From: Caedibacter taeniospiralis
GTDB lineage: Bacteria > Pseudomonadota > Gammaproteobacteria > Francisellales > Francisellaceae
Assembly (NCBI RefSeq): GCF_002803295.2
Contig: NZ_PGGB02000010.1
Span: 13,457 to 45,456, forward strand
Length of the DNA stretch: 32,000 nt
Reading direction: 5' to 3'
This document shows positions 2,951 to 32,000 of this stretch, piece by piece; position 1 is the stretch's first letter, and each line of letters starts with the position of its first letter. The position numbers were made by a program, and so were the translations under genes. The notes beneath the pieces are model-generated. The model did not search any database, was not told where the DNA came from, and saw nothing but the letters and a program-made list of their open reading frames with translations.

Positions 2951-3397
2951 ATGATCCAAAGCGAAACTAAAAATCAGCTCATCATCGCAGATGAGCATGC
3001 GATGCTTGAACTTGGTAAAAAAATCAGCAAATCTCTCAAAAAAGGCGGTGTTATCTATCTTTATGGAGATCTAGGCGCTGGCAAAACTACACTTACCAAA
3101 GGTATTTTACAAGGTTTTGGGTTTACAGGGAGTGTCAAAAGCCCTACTTACACACTGATTGAAACTTATCCGATTAATGGCACCATCTTGCAGCACTTTG
3201 ATTTGTATCGGTTAAGTGATCCAGAGGAGCTTGAATGGATTGGCATTCGTGACTACTTCAACGGCGACAGCATTTCGCTGATTGAGTGGCCACAAAAGGG
3301 TGGCGACTTTCTGCCCCCCCCCACCAGGGAAATTCACATTGCGTACACAGGTACAGGTCGTTCTGTCACCATACTACCTCTTGGGCTGACATTTTAA
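2951..3397 (+). CDS. tsaE: tRNA t6A37 biosynthesis ATPase TsaE (YjeE)
   Basis: P-loop GDLGAGKTTLTKG followed by SPTYTLIETY and HFDLYRL, and about 150 aa in size. The ATG at 2951 is preferred over the TTG at 2930 used by the track. Confidence 0.85.
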   Translation: MIQSETKNQLIIADEHAMLELGKKISKSLKKGGVIYLYGDLGAGKTTLTKGILQGFGFTGSVKSPTYTLIETYPINGTILQHFDLYRLSDPEELEWIGIRDYFNGDSISLIEWPQKGGDFLPPPTREIHIAYTGTGRSVTILPLGLTF

Positions 3398-3413: not shown

Positions 3414-6400
3414 TTACAAGAGGTGAATATAGGGGATCAATGGGAAATACAAGGATACCTTGATGTGTGTCTTGTTTATTTGAAGATGTGTTGCCAGTAA
3501 GGTTTGATAGGTCTTTAGCTGTTCGCTGTAGTGAGTCTCTTGCACTTTAAGAAAATCTTCTAATGTCTCTCCGAAGGCAGGTGATGTAAATTTGTAGTCC
3601 ACAATATGGTACTGGTTATTGTCAACAATGATTCTATCGGCAATATTTTTCTTCAGTTTGCCAAAGTTTAAACTTAGCATCATTTGTTCACTCATGCCCG
3701 TGGCAGAAAATATCCAGGGATAATGCTGTTGTGTGTATTCAACAGCGAGCCTGGCGTCGTTTAGAGCTTTAATTTTAAGCGTACCTGAAAGCGCATATTC
3801 ATGGGCACAGAGTGAGAAATATGCTTGCCAGTCACCGATGTGATCAGGATTACGGCATAGATAGTTAAATAATTGGTGAAGCACTGATCCCATCTGGCGA
3901 TCTTCACTTACTATCAACTCATTCATATCAGGATGATTAAGCTCATCTTGCAACATCATGGAAGGGAAGATGTCTGTCAAGGAAATGGAGTAGTGACTCA
4001 CTTGTTTGATGGGTTTATAGCAGGCGAGTCTTTCTACCTTATCTTGTAATAATTGCTGAGATTGAGTTTCATGTGGCGCAGTCTTCCAGGGAAAGTTTAA
4101 AGGTTGAAGTAATGCAAGTAGACTATTGTTTTTAGCAGTGAGCTGATCGCTGTTATTTTCAGTAATCGCGGTAAGAAGAAGCTTTGATTTTGCGCGTGTG
4201 ACCGCTACGTAGAGAAGGCGCTGCTGTTCATAGGCAGCACGCTTCTTTTGCATATTTTGAATGACTTGATAAAGGGCGGGGGCTGATTTATCCCAGCTGT
4301 GTTTGATAGGACTCAATAACAAATGTATCTTGTGATCATTTAAGCGCACGCTTTCGTGTAGAAATAATGGGTTTTCATCGCCTTTGCTGCCCTTATCCAG
4401 CTGCGGGAGAATCACAAAATCAAACTCAAGCCCCTTGGCCTTATGAATGGTCATAATAGAAACCTGGGCTTGTGAGGGGATACTGATATATTTTCGTTTC
4501 AAGGTATCAATTAAACGATCCATATTGGCAATCGAAGTCTTATCAGGAGTTAAATGCCCATCTAGCAAAGCCAAAAAGCTGGTGTACAGGCTTTTTTGCG
4601 CGCCATGAATATTCATTCCATCCAGCCTTTGCCATAAGATGCTTAAGCGGTCAATTAATGATCCACGCAAACTGGTAAACGGCATATTCATTAGCCACTG
4701 TAAAAAATGATGGGCTTTTTGTTGGTGAGCATGAGTCTGATGATGACAAAGATAAGTCAGGAGTTGCTGGCAAAATGAAATATCCTCCCGCCCGCACATG
4801 GATATTTTTTTAACCGAAGTTTCGCACTTTTGCAAATTTACACGTTTAAGAAACACCCCGTCAGCCTGCGGCTGCCACCCCTCTACAAGAGGGGAATCTT
4901 TTGATGGCTTTCTATCAAATTCCCCTTCATTTGTGAAGGGGTGGACGCAAAGCGGACGGGGTAGTTCAGCAAGCAGTGCATAATCCGAGCTTTTTATGCG
5001 ATTCAATTCATTTAAACTAAATCCAAATAAGGATGATTGTAATAAGCTTATCCAGTAAATCTCTTGTTCAGGATTAGTTAAAATCGCCGCAAGAGAGACA
5101 AGATCCATAACCATTGGCTGGTGATAAAAAGGCTCAATCTCGTTTTCAACGAGTCTGATTTGATGCGCTTTTAGAATGGGGATCATCGTTTTAAGCTGTG
5201 TTCGTGTACGCACCAAGATAGCGATATGATGCTTGGAGTGCTCTTGCAGATAATGTTTAATCTTATGAGCGATATAATGCGCCTCGTCTTGAGCGTCACT
5301 AAAGAGTGAAAAACTTACTGCTTCTTGATTATCAGTTTCAGACAGTGTGCTTGCGTAAGCATAACTAATACCTCCATAGTTCATATCATCTTCAGCAGGA
5401 AAAATCTGACTGAAGCTTTTATTCACCCAATCAACGATGCTTTTTTGCGAACGAAAATTACAATGAAGTTGCAAAAATTTGGGTTTAATTTGGTTAATAC
5501 CTTGAGATTTAACTTCTAAAAACTGATTCACTTCCGCTTGACGAAAGCGGTAAATAGATTGCATAGGGTCTCCGACAACAAACAGTGTTTTACCATCGTC
5601 AGACTGCCATTCCAAAGTTAGCATTTGCAGTAATTTAAATTGTAAAATTGAGGTATCCTGGAACTCATCAATGAGTAAATGCCTGATCTGATGATCCAGA
5701 TAAAGCATAAGCTCTGTTGGACTGTCTTCATTACCTAATGCCGACAAAGCCTGGAGTGATACTTCATTAAAATCAAGCAAGCCCTGCTGTTTGAAAACAA
5801 GCTTAAGATATTGCACTAAACGCAAGCTGATTTGAGTGATCGCCTTGAGTATTTGCCACTCGTTATCATCAAAGATAAGCTTTTCATAGAGTACAAGCTC
5901 AGAAATAACCGCATAAATCCTGAGCTTGTCTTTATCGCTAAACTGTTCAATGTAGGTAAGGAGCCATTTTTTATGTGCCTCGGCAGTTGGGTCTTTGGCG
6001 GGCAGTCCCTGTCTGGCATTAAAAGTCTTTCGAAACTGAAGCTCACTTGTAAACAGTAGCTGAATGAGTCGTTGCCAAAAATAAGGATGATTGCGGTTAT
6101 CCTCAAACGATTGAATTAAATTTTCATCAGTGGACTGATTAGAGTCTTGATGATCACAAAATGCAATAATCTGCCCAAGCCTTTCACTATAAGTCTTTTG
6201 GTCCAAACAAAGCAGATGCGTGGCTTTCTGGCATAATGCTCTAAAAAGCGCCAAAAAGCCTGATTCAATCGTTGACCTGGTATTAGTATCCTTTTGGTAA
6301 AGGAGTTCGGATTGCAATAAAACCGGTAGCCACTGTTCACGAGTTGACAGTAGATTGGTAAATAGTTGTTTGACATTACTGATATTGTTATCAAGATGAA

Positions 6401-6956
6401 GCAACAGTTGATAAAAATCCTGATAATAAGGACTCGTATCCGTTGTGTCAGCAATGAGTTGATCAATGGCTTTTTCATACAAAAGCTCTGGCGAGTCAGT
6501 CACTTCGGCGCTAAATGCTTCACCCGTTTCAAAAACAAGCTGTTTTGATAAGAGCTGACAAAAGGCGTCGATGGTTGTGATGCGTAATCTCTTGGGGTTA
6601 TTGAGAATTTGCCAATGTTTCATCTGACTTTGTTTGAGTGCTGCTTGTGCAAGCTCAAAGGTCAGTTTTTTATGTGACTCATCGGAGGCGCGCGTGCTTT
6701 TTGCATCCATAAGCGCCTCATAAATTCGATGGTGCATTTCATTGGCCGCTTTATTGGTAAAGGTTAGCGCGATAATTTCTTCAGGTGCATCGGCATGTGC
6801 CAACAGGTTTAAGTAACGCTGTGTCAGAGTTTCTGTTTTGCCAGAACCAGCGGGTGCTTGAACGATAAAAGATCGACGGGGGTCTAACGCTTGCTTACGC
6901 GCGTGAGCATCATCAGGGATCATGGATAAGGCTGCATTTATTACACTAGCCAACAT
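3414..6956 (-). CDS. AddA/RecB-like UvrD-family helicase fused to a C-terminal PD-(D/E)XK nuclease
   Basis: 1180 aa. Walker A QAPAGSGKT, motif II LLIDEFQDTS, motif III VGDPMQSIYRFRQA, motif IV-like AILVRTRTQ, motif V TIHKAKGLEFD, motif VI YVAVTRAKSKL, and a C-terminal nuclease motif ADRIIVD...HIVDYKF. Contains an in-frame repeat insertion at 4818-4984. Confidence 0.85.
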   Translation of the reverse strand: MLASVINAALSMIPDDAHARKQALDPRRSFIVQAPAGSGKTETLTQRYLNLLAHADAPEEIIALTFTNKAANEMHHRIYEALMDAKSTRASDESHKKLTFELAQAALKQSQMKHWQILNNPKRLRITTIDAFCQLLSKQLVFETGEAFSAEVTDSPELLYEKAIDQLIADTTDTSPYYQDFYQLLLHLDNNISNVKQLFTNLLSTREQWLPVLLQSELLYQKDTNTRSTIESGFLALFRALCQKATHLLCLDQKTYSERLGQIIAFCDHQDSNQSTDENLIQSFEDNRNHPYFWQRLIQLLFTSELQFRKTFNARQGLPAKDPTAEAHKKWLLTYIEQFSDKDKLRIYAVISELVLYEKLIFDDNEWQILKAITQISLRLVQYLKLVFKQQGLLDFNEVSLQALSALGNEDSPTELMLYLDHQIRHLLIDEFQDTSILQFKLLQMLTLEWQSDDGKTLFVVGDPMQSIYRFRQAEVNQFLEVKSQGINQIKPKFLQLHCNFRSQKSIVDWVNKSFSQIFPAEDDMNYGGISYAYASTLSETDNQEAVSFSLFSDAQDEAHYIAHKIKHYLQEHSKHHIAILVRTRTQLKTMIPILKAHQIRLVENEIEPFYHQPMVMDLVSLAAILTNPEQEIYWISLLQSSLFGFSLNELNRIKSSDYALLAELPRPLCVHPFTNEGEFDRKPSKDSPLVEGWQPQADGVFLKRVNLQKCETSVKKISMCGREDISFCQQLLTYLCHHQTHAHQQKAHHFLQWLMNMPFTSLRGSLIDRLSILWQRLDGMNIHGAQKSLYTSFLALLDGHLTPDKTSIANMDRLIDTLKRKYISIPSQAQVSIMTIHKAKGLEFDFVILPQLDKGSKGDENPLFLHESVRLNDHKIHLLLSPIKHSWDKSAPALYQVIQNMQKKRAAYEQQRLLYVAVTRAKSKLLLTAITENNSDQLTAKNNSLLALLQPLNFPWKTAPHETQSQQLLQDKVERLACYKPIKQVSHYSISLTDIFPSMMLQDELNHPDMNELIVSEDRQMGSVLHQLFNYLCRNPDHIGDWQAYFSLCAHEYALSGTLKIKALNDARLAVEYTQQHYPWIFSATGMSEQMMLSLNFGKLKKNIADRIIVDNNQYHIVDYKFTSPAFGETLEDFLKVQETHYSEQLKTYQTLLATHLQINKTHIKVSLYFPLIPYIHLL
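4818..4984. repeat. Palindromic element, family A copy 2, embedded in frame in the helicase-nuclease CDS
   Basis: Core 4854-4964 aligns with 11978-12087. Both share ..ccccgtcagcctgcggctgccacccc.., two internal hairpins and a closing cggggtag. Outer arms agtttcgcacttttgcaa (4818-4835) and its degenerate complement (4968-4984) resemble the arms of the 8524-8621 element. Confidence 0.75.
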
Positions 6957-8500: not shown

Positions 8501-8523
8501 GAGTTATTATCCATTATTACTGG

Positions 8524-8621
8524 AGTTACGCACTTTTGCTGCACTACCCCCACCTCGCTTGCCTGACCACTACTGGAGTGGTCAGGCGGGGTAGTTAAAA
8601 AATCAGTAAAAGTACGTAACT
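8524..8621. repeat. Nested palindromic REP-like element (R1)
   Basis: Outer arms agttacgcacttttgctg (8524-8541) and cagtaaaagtacgtaact (8604-8621) are complementary at 16 of 18 positions. Inner hairpin cctgaccact-actgg-agtggtcagg (8562-8586) is enclosed by ctaccccc...cggggtag. Lies in the suhB-rsmB spacer. Confidence 0.7.
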
Positions 8622-8639
8622 TCAGATTGTTAGAAAAAG

Positions 8640-10264: not shown

Positions 10265-11905
<1,641 letters not shown>

Positions 11906-11943
11906 TAACCAAAGTTATGGACTTTTGCGAATTGAATAAACAC

Positions 11944-12111
11944 CAATGGCACTACCTTAAGCAGTCTTAATGAGAAACTACCCCGTCAGCCTGCGGCTGC
12001 CACCCCTTCGCTAACGAAGGGGAATTACACATATGCCACAATTCCCCTTCACTCGTGAAGGGGTGCCGAGCTTGCGAGGCGGGGTAGTGACTGCTTAAGG
12101 TAGCGCCATTG
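11944..12111. mobile_element. MITE-like palindromic element, family A copy 1, with 23-bp TIRs and a 10-bp target-site duplication
   Basis: Left TIR caatggcactaccttaagcagtc (11944-11966) and right TIR 12089-12111 match at 22 of 23 positions as reverse complements. GAATAAACAC is present at 11934-11943 and 12112-12121. Core 11978-12087 carries hairpins ccccttcgctaacgaagggg and ccccttcactcgtgaagggg. Confidence 0.8.
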
Positions 12112-12134
12112 GAATAAACACAGGGTAATAACAA

Positions 12135-15281: not shown

Positions 15282-15408
15282 GGTCATGGACCATATTCCC
15301 GCCCATCGCTACCCTGTGCGAGATTGCAGGAGTCATTTCAAAGCTGGACTTCCGCCTTCGCGGGAATAACAGCGCCCATTTTGTTTGGGTGAAGATTTGT
15401 TCTAAGCC
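15282..15408. mobile_element. MITE-like element, family C copy 1, with a perfect 8-bp target-site duplication
   Basis: Ends ggtcatggaccatattcccgccca (15282-15305) and tgggtgaagatttgttctaagcc (15386-15408) are inverted copies of the 23-nt motif. Central cttccgccttcgcgggaa hairpin. AATTTCTA at 15274-15281 and 15409-15416. Homologous to 31583-31708. Confidence 0.78.
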
Positions 15409-15435
15409 AATTTCTATGCATGCGGGTGAAGATAG

Positions 15436-16167: not shown

Positions 16168-16260
16168 GTCGCACACTATATCTTCGCCCATGATGGCGTA
16201 TTGCGTAGGGGCGTATTGCATACGCCCTTCTAAAATGGGCGGAAATTCAGGTAAAACCCT
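16168..16260. repeat. MITE-like element, family B copy 2
   Basis: gtcgcacactatatcttcgccca (16168-16190), hairpin ggcgtattgcatacgcc, and tgggcggaaattcaggtaaaacc (16236-16258). Same architecture and length as 2269-2360 in the opposite orientation. No clean TSD seen. Confidence 0.7.
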
Positions 16261-18113: not shown

Positions 18114-18647
18114 ATGAGTATTAAAAAGCTTGAATCACTAATTGTTGCGGTACCTGATTTTCCAAAGCCAGGAATTTTATTTCGTGATGTTACCCCATTG
18201 CTGGCAGACCCTGCTGGCTTGACTCTCACCGCAAAACTGATGGCTAAGCGTATTAAACAGCTTAAACTTAAACCCACGGTGATTGCAGGTCCTGAAAGCC
18301 GAGGGTTTATTTTTGGTGTGGCACTGGCCAAGCATTTAGGTATCGGTTTTGTCCCTATTAGAAAGCGAGGTAAGTTGCCACGAGCGGTTTATGATTGTGA
18401 ATACGAACTGGAATATGGGATGGATCACTTAGAGGTGCATCAGGATGCTTTTCATGCCAATGATCAGGTACTGTTGGTCGATGATTTGCTGGCAACAGGA
18501 GGAACTGCAAACGCCTGTGTTGAGCTGGTGAAAAAAGCAGGTGCAACGGTCTTGGGGTCACTGTTTGTGATTGAGCTTAAGGGACTAAAAGGTCGAGATA
18601 GAATGCCTAAAAATATCCATATTGACTCGCTGGTAAAATATGAGTGA
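18114..18647 (+). CDS. apt: Adenine phosphoribosyltransferase
   Basis: DFPKPGILFRDVTPLL and the PRPP-binding VLLVDDLLATGGT motif. 177 aa. Confidence 0.92.
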   Translation: MSIKKLESLIVAVPDFPKPGILFRDVTPLLADPAGLTLTAKLMAKRIKQLKLKPTVIAGPESRGFIFGVALAKHLGIGFVPIRKRGKLPRAVYDCEYELEYGMDHLEVHQDAFHANDQVLLVDDLLATGGTANACVELVKKAGATVLGSLFVIELKGLKGRDRMPKNIHIDSLVKYE

Positions 18648-19653
18648 TATTGCCATCCACTTCGATATCCGTGATTATCAAGAAGCCATATTTAATTGGT
18701 ATACAACTCATGGACGGCACAACCTTCCATGGCAGGGTGAGTTTAATCCCTATTTTGTGTGGCTATCTGAAATTATGCTGCAACAAACGCAAGTTAAGAC
18801 GGTTATTCCCTATTTTTTAAATTTTATTGCGAGGTTTCCTCAAATTGAATCTTTAGCTTACGCTGATCAGGATCAGGTAATGCAGGCATGGGCAGGGTTA
18901 GGTTACTATGCGCGCGCTAGGAATTTACATAAGGCAGCGAAGCTTATCTGGGAAAAACATCATGGGAATTTGCCAGATAAGATTGATGAATTATTGACAT
19001 TGCCAGGCATTGGTCAATCAACTGCACATGCGATTTTATCCATTGCGTTTAATCAAGCGACGCCTATTTTAGATGGCAATGTTAAACGGGTATTCTCGCG
19101 ACTTTTTGCCATTGATGAAGTGTTGACTGAAGCGAAGGTTGAAAAAAAGCTATGGCAATTAGCGCATAAGCTGATGCCAAAAGAAAATACGCAAGCCTAT
19201 ACACAAGCACAAATGGACTTGGGAGCCATGCTTTGTACGCGTACAAAACCAAAGTGCGATTTGTGCCCCTTGCAGCAAACCTGTCTTGGCTTTCTAAACC
19301 GCAGTGTGGAAAAATATCCACTCAAAAAAGTCAAAGCAATCAAGAAGATAAAATCATCCATGTTTCACCTTTATCAATATGAAGATGAAATTTTGCTGAT
19401 AAAAAAACCAGATAGCGGGATTTGGGGTGGGTTATATGTTTTGCCTGAAAGTTCCTTAGATATCGGGGAATACAGCCATATGCTGTGTGAAGAACAAAAG
19501 CATGTTTTTACGCATTTTGAGCTGTATTACGCTATTAAGGTTTATCAGCTGCAACAGAAACCTGTTGTGGAAAATGCACATTGGGTCTTAGCGGCAAACC
19601 TCATGCAATATGCGCTTCCAGCACCTCTGGCAAAACAGCTTTTAACGGTGTAG
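18640..19653 (+). CDS. mutY: A/G-specific adenine DNA glycosylase MutY
   Basis: HhH LPGIGQSTAHAI, Fe-S cluster cysteines CTRTKPKCDLCPLQQTC, and a C-terminal NUDIX-like domain. 8-nt overlap with apt. Confidence 0.9.
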   Translation: MSDIAIHFDIRDYQEAIFNWYTTHGRHNLPWQGEFNPYFVWLSEIMLQQTQVKTVIPYFLNFIARFPQIESLAYADQDQVMQAWAGLGYYARARNLHKAAKLIWEKHHGNLPDKIDELLTLPGIGQSTAHAILSIAFNQATPILDGNVKRVFSRLFAIDEVLTEAKVEKKLWQLAHKLMPKENTQAYTQAQMDLGAMLCTRTKPKCDLCPLQQTCLGFLNRSVEKYPLKKVKAIKKIKSSMFHLYQYEDEILLIKKPDSGIWGGLYVLPESSLDIGEYSHMLCEEQKHVFTHFELYYAIKVYQLQQKPVVENAHWVLAANLMQYALPAPLAKQLLTV

Positions 19654-19660
19654 TTTTCAA

Positions 19661-19827
19661 TTTGGTAAGCTGTTATACTCTTGTCATTTTGAATGGCTTG
19701 ATTGAATCTCATGAAAAAACTTCCCATTGACATTTCTTGGTTTGAGTTAATGTCAAACTTATATTTCAGAGTCTGTAAGATATTTGTACATAAATATAGC
19801 ATTCAGTTCAAGTTAAACTACAACTGA
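19661..19827 (+). pseudogene. Decayed 5' remnant of an AAA-ATPase-like (PF09820-type) gene with its upstream region
   Basis: 19661-19746 aligns by eye with 31861-31951, including ATG-AAAAACTTCCCATTG-ATTTCT-GGTTT. The remnant ORF MKKLPIDISWFE... diverges after about 12 codons and stops at 19825-19827. Confidence 0.5.
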
Positions 19828-21579: not shown

Positions 21580-21630
21580 GTTAATTATTTTCCAAAGCAG
21601 AAATGTCAATTTTACGACCACGATAGAGAG

Positions 21631-21724
21631 TAATGGCGCTAAGTTAAGCTGTTTTTAGGACTACCCCGTCTGACCACTCCAAAGTGGTCAGACGGGGTAG
21701 TTGTTACTTAACTTAGTGCCATTA
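21631..21724. repeat. Nested palindromic element (R2) with A-family-like termini and a perfect 18-bp hairpin
   Basis: Outer arms taatggcgctaagttaag (21631-21648) and cttaacttagtgccatta (21707-21724) match at 17 of 18 positions. Inner ctaccccgtctgaccact-ccaa-agtggtcagacggggtag (21661-21700) is perfect. Lies in the glgC-GH57 spacer. Confidence 0.75.
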
Positions 21725-21733
21725 GTCTTAACC

Positions 21734-27208: not shown

Positions 27209-27237
27209 AGAAGAGGCGTATTCAATACGCCCCTACG
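27209..27237. repeat. Solo family-B core hairpin between convergent gshA and speA; a possible bidirectional terminator
   Basis: agaggcgtattcaatacgcccctacg matches the B-element core. Stem ggcgtatt/aatacgcc lies at 27215-27231. Confidence 0.4.
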
Positions 27238-31582: not shown

Positions 31583-31708
31583 GGCTCTGACTATCTTTCC
31601 GCCCACCGTTACCCTGCGCGAAGTCGTTAGGGTTATTTGAAAGCTGGATTCCCGCCTTCGCGGGAATGACCGTGTCTCTTTTGTTTGGGCGGAAATTTTG
31701 TCTAAGCC
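31583..31708. mobile_element. MITE-like element, family C copy 2
   Basis: ggctctgactatctttccgccca (31583-31605) and tgggcggaaattttgtctaagcc (31686-31708) as TIRs. Perfect hairpin attcccgc-cttc-gcgggaat. Flanks are TATTTTTC (31575-31582) and TATTTTC (31709-31715). Confidence 0.75.
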
Positions 31709-31718
31709 TATTTTCGGT

Positions 31719-31795: not shown

Positions 31796-31916
31796 TTGGT
31801 CATGACCATGTTCCCGCCTATTTTCAAAAAATAGCCCTGGTGCCTAATGACTCGAGTAGTTTTGGTCTTAGCAAACTGGTATACTTTTGCCATCTTAAAT
31901 TGCCTGAATCGATCGT

Positions 31917-32000
31917 ATGCAAAAACTTCCCATTGGTATTTCTGGTTTAGAGAAAATCATCACAGGTGACTATATTTACGTCGATAAAACCAGACATGTT
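31917..32000 (+). CDS. 5' end of an AAA-ATPase-like domain protein (PF09820-type, often fused to a PD-(D/E)XK nuclease domain); runs off the right edge
   Basis: MQKLPIGISGLEKIITGDYIYVDKTRHV matches the characteristic N-terminus (KLPIGI..FEK....Y.YVDKT) of this family. Only 28 codons are visible. Confidence 0.6.
   Translation, partial: MQKLPIGISGLEKIITGDYIYVDKTRHV

Follow-up and report, generated by a model that had tools for sequence, protein, structure and literature searches.

The window analysed here, a 32,000-nucleotide stretch of contig NZ_PGGB02000010.1 (assembly GCF_002803295.2), contains an AddA/RecB-like helicase-nuclease gene (the addA-like gene) that is interrupted in frame by a 176-nt palindromic sequence absent from its relatives. 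It is very likely that this sequence is a non-autonomous composite palindromic element, similar to a miniature inverted-repeat transposable element (MITE), which entered the region encoding the 2B domain after the split from Caedibacter taeniospiralis. The reading frame is open across the insert and the gene has remained under constraint.

An earlier note, made from the sequence alone, had placed a mobile palindromic element in frame inside this gene, and comparison with a syntenic relative confirms the insertion: on the C. taeniospiralis-type contig L001 (Joint Genome Institute, JGI) the corresponding site is empty and holds the target that is duplicated in the window. The BLAST alignment of the window with L001 breaks at 4814/4991, and the two aligned segments share 7 nt of L001 (11123-11129). 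The empty site reads GGTTTTTTTAAC directly before GCGAT (also written TTTTTTTAAC before GCGAT), and the filled site reads TTTTTTTAA(C)-[CGAAGTTTCGCAC...CCGAGC]-TTTTTAT-GCGAT. Thus, the element occupies 4815-4990. Together with a duplication of about 7 nt, its 176 nt lengthen the gene by 183 nt net (61 codons). The limits first proposed (4818-4984, about 56 amino acids) were right in location and slightly short in extent. The parts of the insertion are as follows.

4808-4814: left target-site duplication, TTTTTAA, from the L001 empty site
4815-4990: composite palindromic element (MITE-like), 176 nt, minus-strand reading SDYALLAELPRPLCVHPFTNEGEFDRKPSKDSPLVEGWQPQADGVFLKRVNLQKCETS
4815-4833: left arm of the type-A outer inverted repeat, CGAAGTTTCGCACTTTTGC, the motif found at 8520-8539 and 11908-11928 (family D5)
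4853-4897, minus strand: left double-hairpin module, in reverse orientation, ACACCCCG-TCAGCCTGCGGCTG-CCACCCCTCTACAAGAGGGGAAT; 28-nt identity with 11980-12007
4918-4965, plus strand: right double-hairpin module, AATTCCCCTTCATTTGTGAAGGGGTGGACGCAAAGCGGACGGGGTAGT; matches 78 modules of other phyla column by column in an alignment
4969-4990: right arm of the type-A outer inverted repeat, GCAAGCAGTGCATAATCCGAGC, degenerate, about 70% complementary to the left arm
4991-4997: right target-site duplication, TTTTTAT, from the 7-nt BLAST overlap with L001

Of the element's six frames a single one is free of stops, the one that the gene uses, in accordance with the earlier claim that the open reading frame (ORF) runs through the insert. 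As single-stranded DNA the element is predicted to fold with -39.6 kcal/mol (z=-6.4), and in the mRNA sense with -71.3 kcal/mol (z=-5.5); in the computed fold the inner part of the 4815-4833 arm pairs with 4969-4980. The 61-residue block is missing from all nine close orthologs and from all 49 homologs of a wider alignment drawn from several families, in which 15-33 residues stand where the window protein has 76. The comparison supports the earlier reading, the segment being absent from the 89%-identical C. taeniospiralis ortholog and 48 other homologs. L003 (GCA_031972495.1), another assembly from this species, also has the insert in frame, with three nucleotide changes in the element. L139, a metagenome contig that is 99.9% identical and belongs to the same organism, enters the element from one side and ends inside it.

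The interrupted gene and the place of the insert

The host gene encodes a UvrD-family helicase with a C-terminal nuclease domain:

3414-6956, minus strand: AddA/RecB-like gene, UvrD-family helicase with a C-terminal PD-(D/E)XK nuclease, 1180-codon ORF

Its Pfam matches are UvrD-helicase, UvrD_C and, weakly, PDDEXK_1, and the best match in the PDB is Bacillus subtilis AddA (3U44_A, E=3.7e-29). An MIPDD start lies at 6923 and the starts of the orthologs are all MIPDD or MxP; the 11 codons upstream of it (6924-6956) are probably not translated, which would make the real length 1169 rather than 1180 amino acids. The closest homolog, annotated Caedibacter taeniospiralis, is 89% identical, has 1108 amino acids and is encoded on L001. 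All 1169 codons are intact, and the Walker A motif, DEFQD, motifs IV and V and the nuclease motif are kept.

The insert follows ...FGFSLNELNRIK, which aligns to AddA 651-662 and PcrA ~417-428, and the residues that precede it align to PcrA ~428-431 and AddA 662. It lies between motif IV (AILVRTRTQ), upstream, and motif V (TIHKAKGLEFD), in a region that we take, from the PcrA and UvrD structures, to be the 2B domain; the alignment agrees with the position proposed at the outset. An AlphaFold model built from a 50-sequence alignment has a mean predicted local distance difference test (pLDDT) score of 83.8. Residues 647-712 (numbered from MIPDD) score below 50 and are flanked by confident helices (83-95), and the insert is modelled as a low-confidence loop; the earlier note had proposed such a prediction as a test for a surface excursion of the 2B domain.

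Element anatomy and further copies in the window

The likeness between the insert and a palindrome in the pheS-pheT spacer, on which the first reading was built, holds in detail. The two cores (4853-4965 and 11977-12088) share a 28-nt exact match (4855-4882 and 11980-12007), two CCCC/GGGG hairpins and the closing stem A(C/T)ACCCCG...CGGGGTAGT. The sequence CTACCCCG occurs six times in the window, against an expectation of 0.29, and its additional sites pointed to two shorter relatives. The window therefore holds three copies besides that in the addA-like gene.

8520-8625: short relative in the rsmB-suhB spacer; type-A arms (20 nt) around ACTACCCC...GCCTGACCACT-loop-AGTGGTCAGGC-GGGGTAGT
11943-12112: sister copy between pheS and pheT; its core doublet (11977-12088) is enclosed by a type-B outer inverted repeat
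11935-11942 and 12113-12120: target-site duplication of the pheS-pheT copy, AATAAACA, perfect, 8 nt
21627-21728: short relative between the GH57 gene and glgC; type-B-like arms 21627-21648 and 21707-21728

The terminal inverted repeats (TIRs) and target-site duplication attributed to the pheS-pheT copy are both present: its type-B arms (11943-11966 and 12089-12112, inverted repeat I4) are 24 nt long and 96% complementary, and they stand between the two 8-nt repeats. The frame equivalent to that of the addA-like gene is open through the core of this copy and encodes HPFTSEGE...KGWQPQADGV, as had been noticed; its outer arms contain stops. The copy at 8520-8625 is flanked by a 7-nt duplication (ATTATTA at 8513-8519, ATTGTTA at 8626-8632) for which L001 again has the empty site, TATCC-ATTGTTA-GAAAAA, and the copy at 21627-21728 encloses a perfect 19-nt hairpin, ACTACCCCGTCTGACCACT / AGTGGTCAGACGGGGTAGT (inverted repeats I16 and I20).

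All four copies share the stem ACTACCCCG...CGGGGTAGT. Inside the stem stand either two inverted modules (addA, pheS-pheT) or a single GACCACT/AGTGGTC hairpin (8520, 21627); outside it stands an outer inverted repeat of one of two unrelated types, A (CTGRAGTTACGYACTTTTRC) or B (CCAATGGCACTACCTTAAGCAGTC); and all four combinations of inner structure and arm type occur in the window. As far as sequence can tell, the unit that moved, giving the difference between empty and filled sites, is the whole TIR-bounded composite. In the following respects it has the properties of a MITE. The copies have TIRs (24 nt and 96% complementary for type B; 20 nt for type A at 8520-8625, degenerate in addA), comparison of filled with empty sites reveals a target duplication at the addA and rsmB-suhB copies, and the elements are small (102-176 nt), lack a transposase gene and are present four times in 32 kb, one of the four being intragenic.

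The pheS-pheT spacer has a more involved history. To the left of the type-B element lies a lone type-A arm, CCAAAGTTATGGACTTTTGC (11908-11928), and TAATAA occurs on both outer sides (11899-11934 and 12121-12131); this looks like a nested insertion, in which the type-B element entered what was left of an older type-A element. On the C. taeniospiralis-type contig the same spacer holds instead a 244-aa ORF with no Pfam match (L001:3546-4280). Given this difference in content, the spacer has been invaded independently in each of the two lineages.

The double-hairpin module in other phyla

The core of the element consists of two inverted copies of a module of about 45-50 nt, composed of AATTCCCCTTC-loop-GAAGGGGTG, a variable hairpin and CGGGGTAG. 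A scan of one genome per species with the pattern AATTCCCCTTCN{4,8}GAAGGGGTG matched at least 119 stretches. The matches listed come from Bacteroidales, Chitinophagales, Ignavibacteria, Melioribacteraceae, Kapaibacterium, Rickettsiales and other Alphaproteobacteria, as well as from Polaromonas, Arenimonas, Ghiorsea, Deferribacteraceae, Endomicrobium, Spirochaetales and a Francisellaceae metagenome-assembled genome (MAG), so that the groups with the module include Bacteroidota, Ignavibacteriota, Rickettsiales, Burkholderiales and Francisellaceae. Nearly all the listed matches have the first hairpin, then a second, variable hairpin and then CGGGGTAG, an end that hardly varies across 79 aligned modules.

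When 124 distinct modules were compared directly, the arms of the second hairpin proved perfectly complementary in 61 different versions, and 72 of the 124 carry a GNA triloop on the strand that runs from AATT to GTAG. The variable hairpin thus shows structural covariation with a strand bias. GNA triloops are very stable in single-stranded DNA. An RNA with a UNCG tetraloop was considered and rejected, as the pairing geometry gives GNA triloops on the opposite strand. Over the whole window no Rfam family reached its gathering threshold, and on the element there was sub-threshold noise from microRNA hairpins alone; a BLAST search of the core against 72,556 plasmids gave no match, and literature searched by sequence words returned primers and unrelated matches alone.

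Modules occur singly, as both kinds of inverted doublet (head to head and tail to tail) and in tandem arrays. In a Rickettsiales MAG (L021:1-1040) tandem modules with conserved linkers recur with a 71-72-nt period, which on the surface resembles a CRISPR array, an identification that we rejected because the sequence between the repeats is itself conserved. The variable-hairpin 23-mer of the window, CGTCAGCCTGCGGCTGCCACCCC, matched at least 119 metagenome stretches, mostly from termite gut, where a variant has the head GGGGTGGT and the first stem CCCCTCC/GGAGGGG. In the termite-gut metagenomes (L137-L255, for example L145, L164, L175 and L192) the variant module lies in a longer conserved context, ...AAAATAGATNCC...GAAATATTGATAA-module-...TTCTGCTTTCTGCC..., which points to a repeated element of larger size or to the conserved end of a gene.

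In other genomes 13 modules fall inside ORFs of at least 150 aa, and 6 of 150 lie deep inside ORFs longer than 300 aa. The one verified there as interrupting a real gene is in PriA of a termite-gut Rickettsiales MAG (L026:5274-7409), in which a module at 5970-6016 sits in frame in the helicase core. The insert, ...SKFPFAGEGVDCEAGRGSG..., comprises the module and a second small palindrome, adds about 55 residues before the conserved motif LILIGTRSALF and has Pfam domains on either side.

Association of the module with DUF559 genes

When the ORFs within 1.5 kb of modules were clustered across the 119 listed genome loci, the sole family that recurred tightly beside modules across phyla was that of the small DUF559 proteins (PF04480), present in one genome each of Melioribacteraceae, Rickettsiales, an alphaproteobacterium, Bacteroidales and Ghiorsea and 53-58% identical to one another. 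None of the eight DUF559 matches in these loci, of which five are intact genes and three are fragments, is more than 84 nt away from a module. The family is also found, at 56-85% identity, in Francisella, Francisellaceae CB299, Facilibium, Cysteiniphilum and C. taeniospiralis, and in Parcubacteria, Desulfuromonadales, Oscillospiraceae and an Aenigmarchaeota MAG, giving an overall range of 50-85% across phyla. Conversely, seven loci were fetched by starting from DUF559 proteins. Six of them have modules, usually as an inverted pair that flanks the gene, and the archaeal locus has none. Bracketed DUF559 genes were seen at L256:1088-1636 and in L129, L123, L132, L014, L021, L032, L093, L105 and L152; many of the called ORFs have a lengthened N-terminus because the reading runs through the upstream module.

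The most compact arrangement is that of Facilibium subflavum (L256), with a module at 1088-1138, the gene at 1201-1587 and a second module at 1588-1636. The order is AATTCCCC...GGCAGCCGTAGGCTGACGGGGTAG, a spacer of about 60 nt, the gene and then, directly past its stop, CTACCCCGCCTCGCAGGCTCGGCACCCC...GGGGAATT. The pheS-pheT doublet of the window has both of the Facilibium end hairpin variants, GCAGCCGCAGGCTGAC and CCGAGCTTGCGAGGC, ordered as in a junction between a right end and a left end. L152, which belongs to a metagenome project in which the window organism is also present, has an intact DUF559 gene 84% identical to that of Facilibium behind a module 92.6% identical to the window's, and in the related contig L250 a type-B arm is followed by a module and then by an internally deleted DUF559 gene. 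The unit with the gene and the doublets without it fit a relation of parent and derivative, although DUF559 need not on that account have moved anything. It is a tentative proposal, and one rather less likely than not, that the module is the terminal repeat of an undescribed selfish unit, spread across phyla, whose sole gene is DUF559 (a small putative endonuclease of the Vsr-like PD-(D/E)XK type) and of which the gene-less doublets would be derivatives.

It could be argued from these observations that the doublet in the addA-like gene was itself moved or copied by such a nuclease, through homing or recognition of hairpins in single-stranded DNA, rather than by a DDE transposase. The close and mostly inverted bracketing of DUF559 genes, the Facilibium unit whose two end variants meet in the pheS-pheT doublet, the remnant gene in L250, the identity of the proteins across phyla and the strand-specific triloops all speak for this explanation. 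It should be emphasized, however, that where an empty site is known the copy ends at the outer TIRs and has 7-8-bp duplications, which homing or HUH-type single-strand transposition does not predict; an enzyme other than DUF559 is thus indicated for the last step. DUF559 genes could, moreover, insert into repeat doublets or accumulate beside them, and the window itself has no DUF559 gene. We know of no nuclease activity or mobility for this DUF559 subfamily. In the 22 papers listed of 25 that contain the term DUF559, titles and abstract openings give no tie to repeats, and the contig position of the C. taeniospiralis homolog, P0251, was not found. On balance, movement of the addA doublet by DUF559 is possible but doubtful, and insertion of the whole TIR-bounded composite by another enzyme is the reading that we prefer.

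Comparison with known repeat families

Insertions of this kind have precedents. Di Nocera et al. (2013, PMC3733652) divided the repetitive extragenic palindromes (REPs) of more than 80 species in eight phyla into two superfamilies, one tagged GTAG and one tagged CGTC. That survey records REP dimers nested in longer palindromes, finds a concentration of in-frame REPs in genes for replication and repair (UvrD/Rep helicases, recB, exonuclease V beta) and equates the Rickettsia conorii CGTC-1 and CGTC-4 families with RPE-6 and RPE-4; CGTC REPs are said there to have no dedicated enzyme, and DUF559 is not mentioned. Like these REPs, the module of the window is a short tagged palindrome with a CCA tail, often present as an inverted dimer and distributed across phyla: it reads CTACCC-CGTC-stem-loop-stem-(G)CCA on one strand and has a GTAG end on the other, and so carries the REP tag and tail. 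Unlike the published REPs, it has two hairpins, of which the conserved CCCCTTC/GAAGGGG hairpin lies outside the REP definition, and in place of the CGTC REP geometry (an 8-9-bp stem with a 4-5-nt loop) its perfect stems are mostly 3-5 bp with GNA triloops. Coxiella AddB carries an in-frame GTAG-3 dimer, the only intragenic GTAG REP dimer listed for C. burnetii, which encodes SPYEAQRNTG... (PMC3733652). Translations of the window module do not resemble this peptide, and the core is therefore probably a REP family other than that of Coxiella.

In overall architecture, as described, a close counterpart is QMITE2 of Coxiella, an element of 150-190 bp. Its TIRs are 21-31 nt long, its direct repeats, of 7-11 bp, are unique, and its core is a GTAG REP; the element has long and short versions, is targeted by IS1111 in its core and has core relatives in other genera (Wachter et al. 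2018, PMC5896051). The window elements, with 170-176 bp, TIRs of 19-24 nt, duplications of 7-8 bp and a GTAG core, match this description. QMITE2 copies overlap the 3' ends of genes by a few base pairs, with no internal in-frame insert reported (PMC5896051). An insertion that recalls that of IS1111 is seen in L250, a related contig and not the window. There an insertion sequence of the IS110/IS1111 family (359-2350; PF01548 and PF02371), which encodes a DEDD transposase of 351 aa and has the subterminal repeats GGACTTCCTCC / GGAGGAAGTCC, splits the GACCACT hairpin in the loop of GCCTGACCACT...TGGTCAGGC, in the element that also has the type-B arm and the deleted DUF559 gene.

The earlier note had compared the insert with Rickettsia palindromic elements (RPEs), as the same behaviour in a different lineage with an unrelated sequence. 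RPEs are presented in PMC10969869 as palindromes of about 100-150 bp found in frame in unrelated housekeeping genes, where they encode tolerated surface peptides. The in-frame palindrome in housekeeping genes is indeed shared (the addA-like gene here, PriA in the Rickettsiales MAG), and the R. conorii RPE-4 and RPE-6 peptides (SFLRKQES..., WIPWSNHGMT; PMC3733652) are unlike those of the module, so that the lack of relationship to RPE-4 and RPE-6 holds at the sequence level. The sequence is not, however, private to this lineage, the core being present in many phyla including Rickettsiales MAGs. RPEs differ further in their host lineage and in not being described with TIRs and 7-8-bp duplications, and the large intragenic share typical of them contrasts with the one copy in four in the window and the small fraction of modules within long ORFs elsewhere. 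Like REPIN/BIME repeats, which are mobilised by RAYT tyrosine transposases, the element contains GTAG-tagged hairpins paired in inverted orientation, and such doublets fold into one long hairpin. It differs in that the composite makes target duplications, which HUH transposition does not, and in that the module is conserved across phyla whereas REPs are species-specific; in the regions covered, the neighbourhoods of about 150 modules, no RAYT gene was found.

Three further repeat families were observed in the window. The first is a separate, classical GTAG-tagged REP family, (C)GTAGGGGCGTATnnnATACGCC, at 2303-2326, 16204-16227 and 27214-27237; each of the three sites has it on both strands, giving six matches against 0.05 expected, and all lie beside gene ends. 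A repeat of about 125 nt (15289-15413 and 31589-31713, 77% identity) has at its centre GGTCATTCCCGCGAAGGCGGGAATCC, a CGTC-1-type hairpin, whose translation VIPAKAGI is the peptide listed for the R. conorii CGTC-1 (RPE-6) insert (PMC3733652). The third, of about 100 nt (19650-19751 and 31856-31957, 74% identity), begins in its first copy at the stop of mutY (18640-19653); an identification of the gene beside repeat D2 as ruvB was rejected, the gene being mutY. In the 5' part of tsaE (2993-3042) the window has 50 nt where the near-identical L003 has 23, a strain indel.

Discussion

In the history that we propose, outer TIRs enclose two inverted copies of a cosmopolitan, GTAG/CGTC-tagged double-hairpin module, and the insertion of this composite duplicated 7 bp of an AT-rich target. 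The total of 183 bp has no stop in the frame entered, so that the gene would encode the same helicase-nuclease with an extra 61-residue surface loop, probably disordered, in a domain that tolerates length variation. We take the insert to be a tolerated selfish passenger rather than a new functional domain. The whole TIR-bounded unit was presumably moved in trans by a cut-and-paste-type enzyme encoded elsewhere, because the duplications of 7-8 bp argue for staggered cleavage. Since the frame is open, dN/dS (the ratio of non-synonymous to synonymous substitution rates) is low and L003 also has the insert in frame, the gene looks alive and free of decay. Relative to the C. taeniospiralis-type ortholog dN/dS is 0.21 for the whole gene, 0.19 in the part upstream of the insert and 0.23 in the part downstream, with 0.01-0.14 in neighbouring genes.

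Several observations weigh against this history. The right duplication at the addA-like gene differs from the left by one base and lacks one base, the outer arms of this copy are no more than about 70% complementary, and no DDE transposase with type-A or type-B ends was seen in the sequences examined, the genome not having been scanned whole. The dN/dS values average over the time before the insertion. The comparison within the species, between the window and L003 copies of the gene, offers no more than nine substitutions, four synonymous and five non-synonymous. No addB-like partner lies beside the gene in the window, and the very stable mRNA hairpin (-71 kcal/mol) could impair translation or attract RNase III. 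The protein is presumably made and active.

The hairpin and the lack of an adjacent addB-like gene would also accord with a gene that is dead or crippled, either as a young pseudogene or through a blocked mRNA, the open frame being fortuitous. C. taeniospiralis, to which the organism is related, is an obligate endosymbiont, and several repeat families are found on the organism's contigs; by calculation, moreover, 61 random codons have a chance of about 5% of containing no stop, and the open frame is thus not extraordinary. The intact 1169 codons with their helicase and nuclease motifs, the low dN/dS downstream of the insert and the retention of the frame in L003 despite three substitutions in the element argue against decay, which we consider unlikely.

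Less probable still is an exaptation, in which the loop, or the hairpin in RNA or DNA, would have endowed the helicase-nuclease, or its expression, with some new property. UvrD-family helicases are regulated by their 2B domain, and the same module is found in PriA. REP inserts show a recurrent excess in replication and repair genes (PMC3733652). The loop, however, is predicted to be disordered, its sequence is a mere translation of the module, one of the five amino-acid differences between the window and L003 (N676S) falls within it, and no ortholog has anything at the insert site. Finally, it is scarcely credible that the segment is ancestral and was lost in the relatives, or that it is an artefact of repeat collapse, even though L139 ends inside the element and assemblers struggle there: the segment is absent from 49 homologs of several families, the target duplication and TIRs mark an insertion, and two independent assemblies (the window and L003) span the element.

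The in-frame insertion of a REP, RPE or MITE into a repair helicase is a type of event already known, and its core is cosmopolitan rather than private; in-frame REP and RPE inserts were described in 2013 and QMITE2 has the same architecture, and the addA case therefore belongs to this type. With both the filled and the empty site known, and with a target duplication, it offers a clean, datable example of a selfish palindrome absorbed into a repair enzyme of essential type, a useful case without a new principle. The wider lead is the association of DUF559 with a module of about 50 nt that is common to many phyla, several of whose hosts are symbionts of protists or inhabit termite guts or the rumen. 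If this link were causal, it would bear on how a large class of REP-like repeats spreads, a question that has stood since REPs were first described and was stated for CGTC REPs in 2013. The GTAG/CGTC-tagged REP-like repeats would then gain the dedicated enzyme that the 2013 survey called missing, and DUF559, a very common domain, would gain a role.

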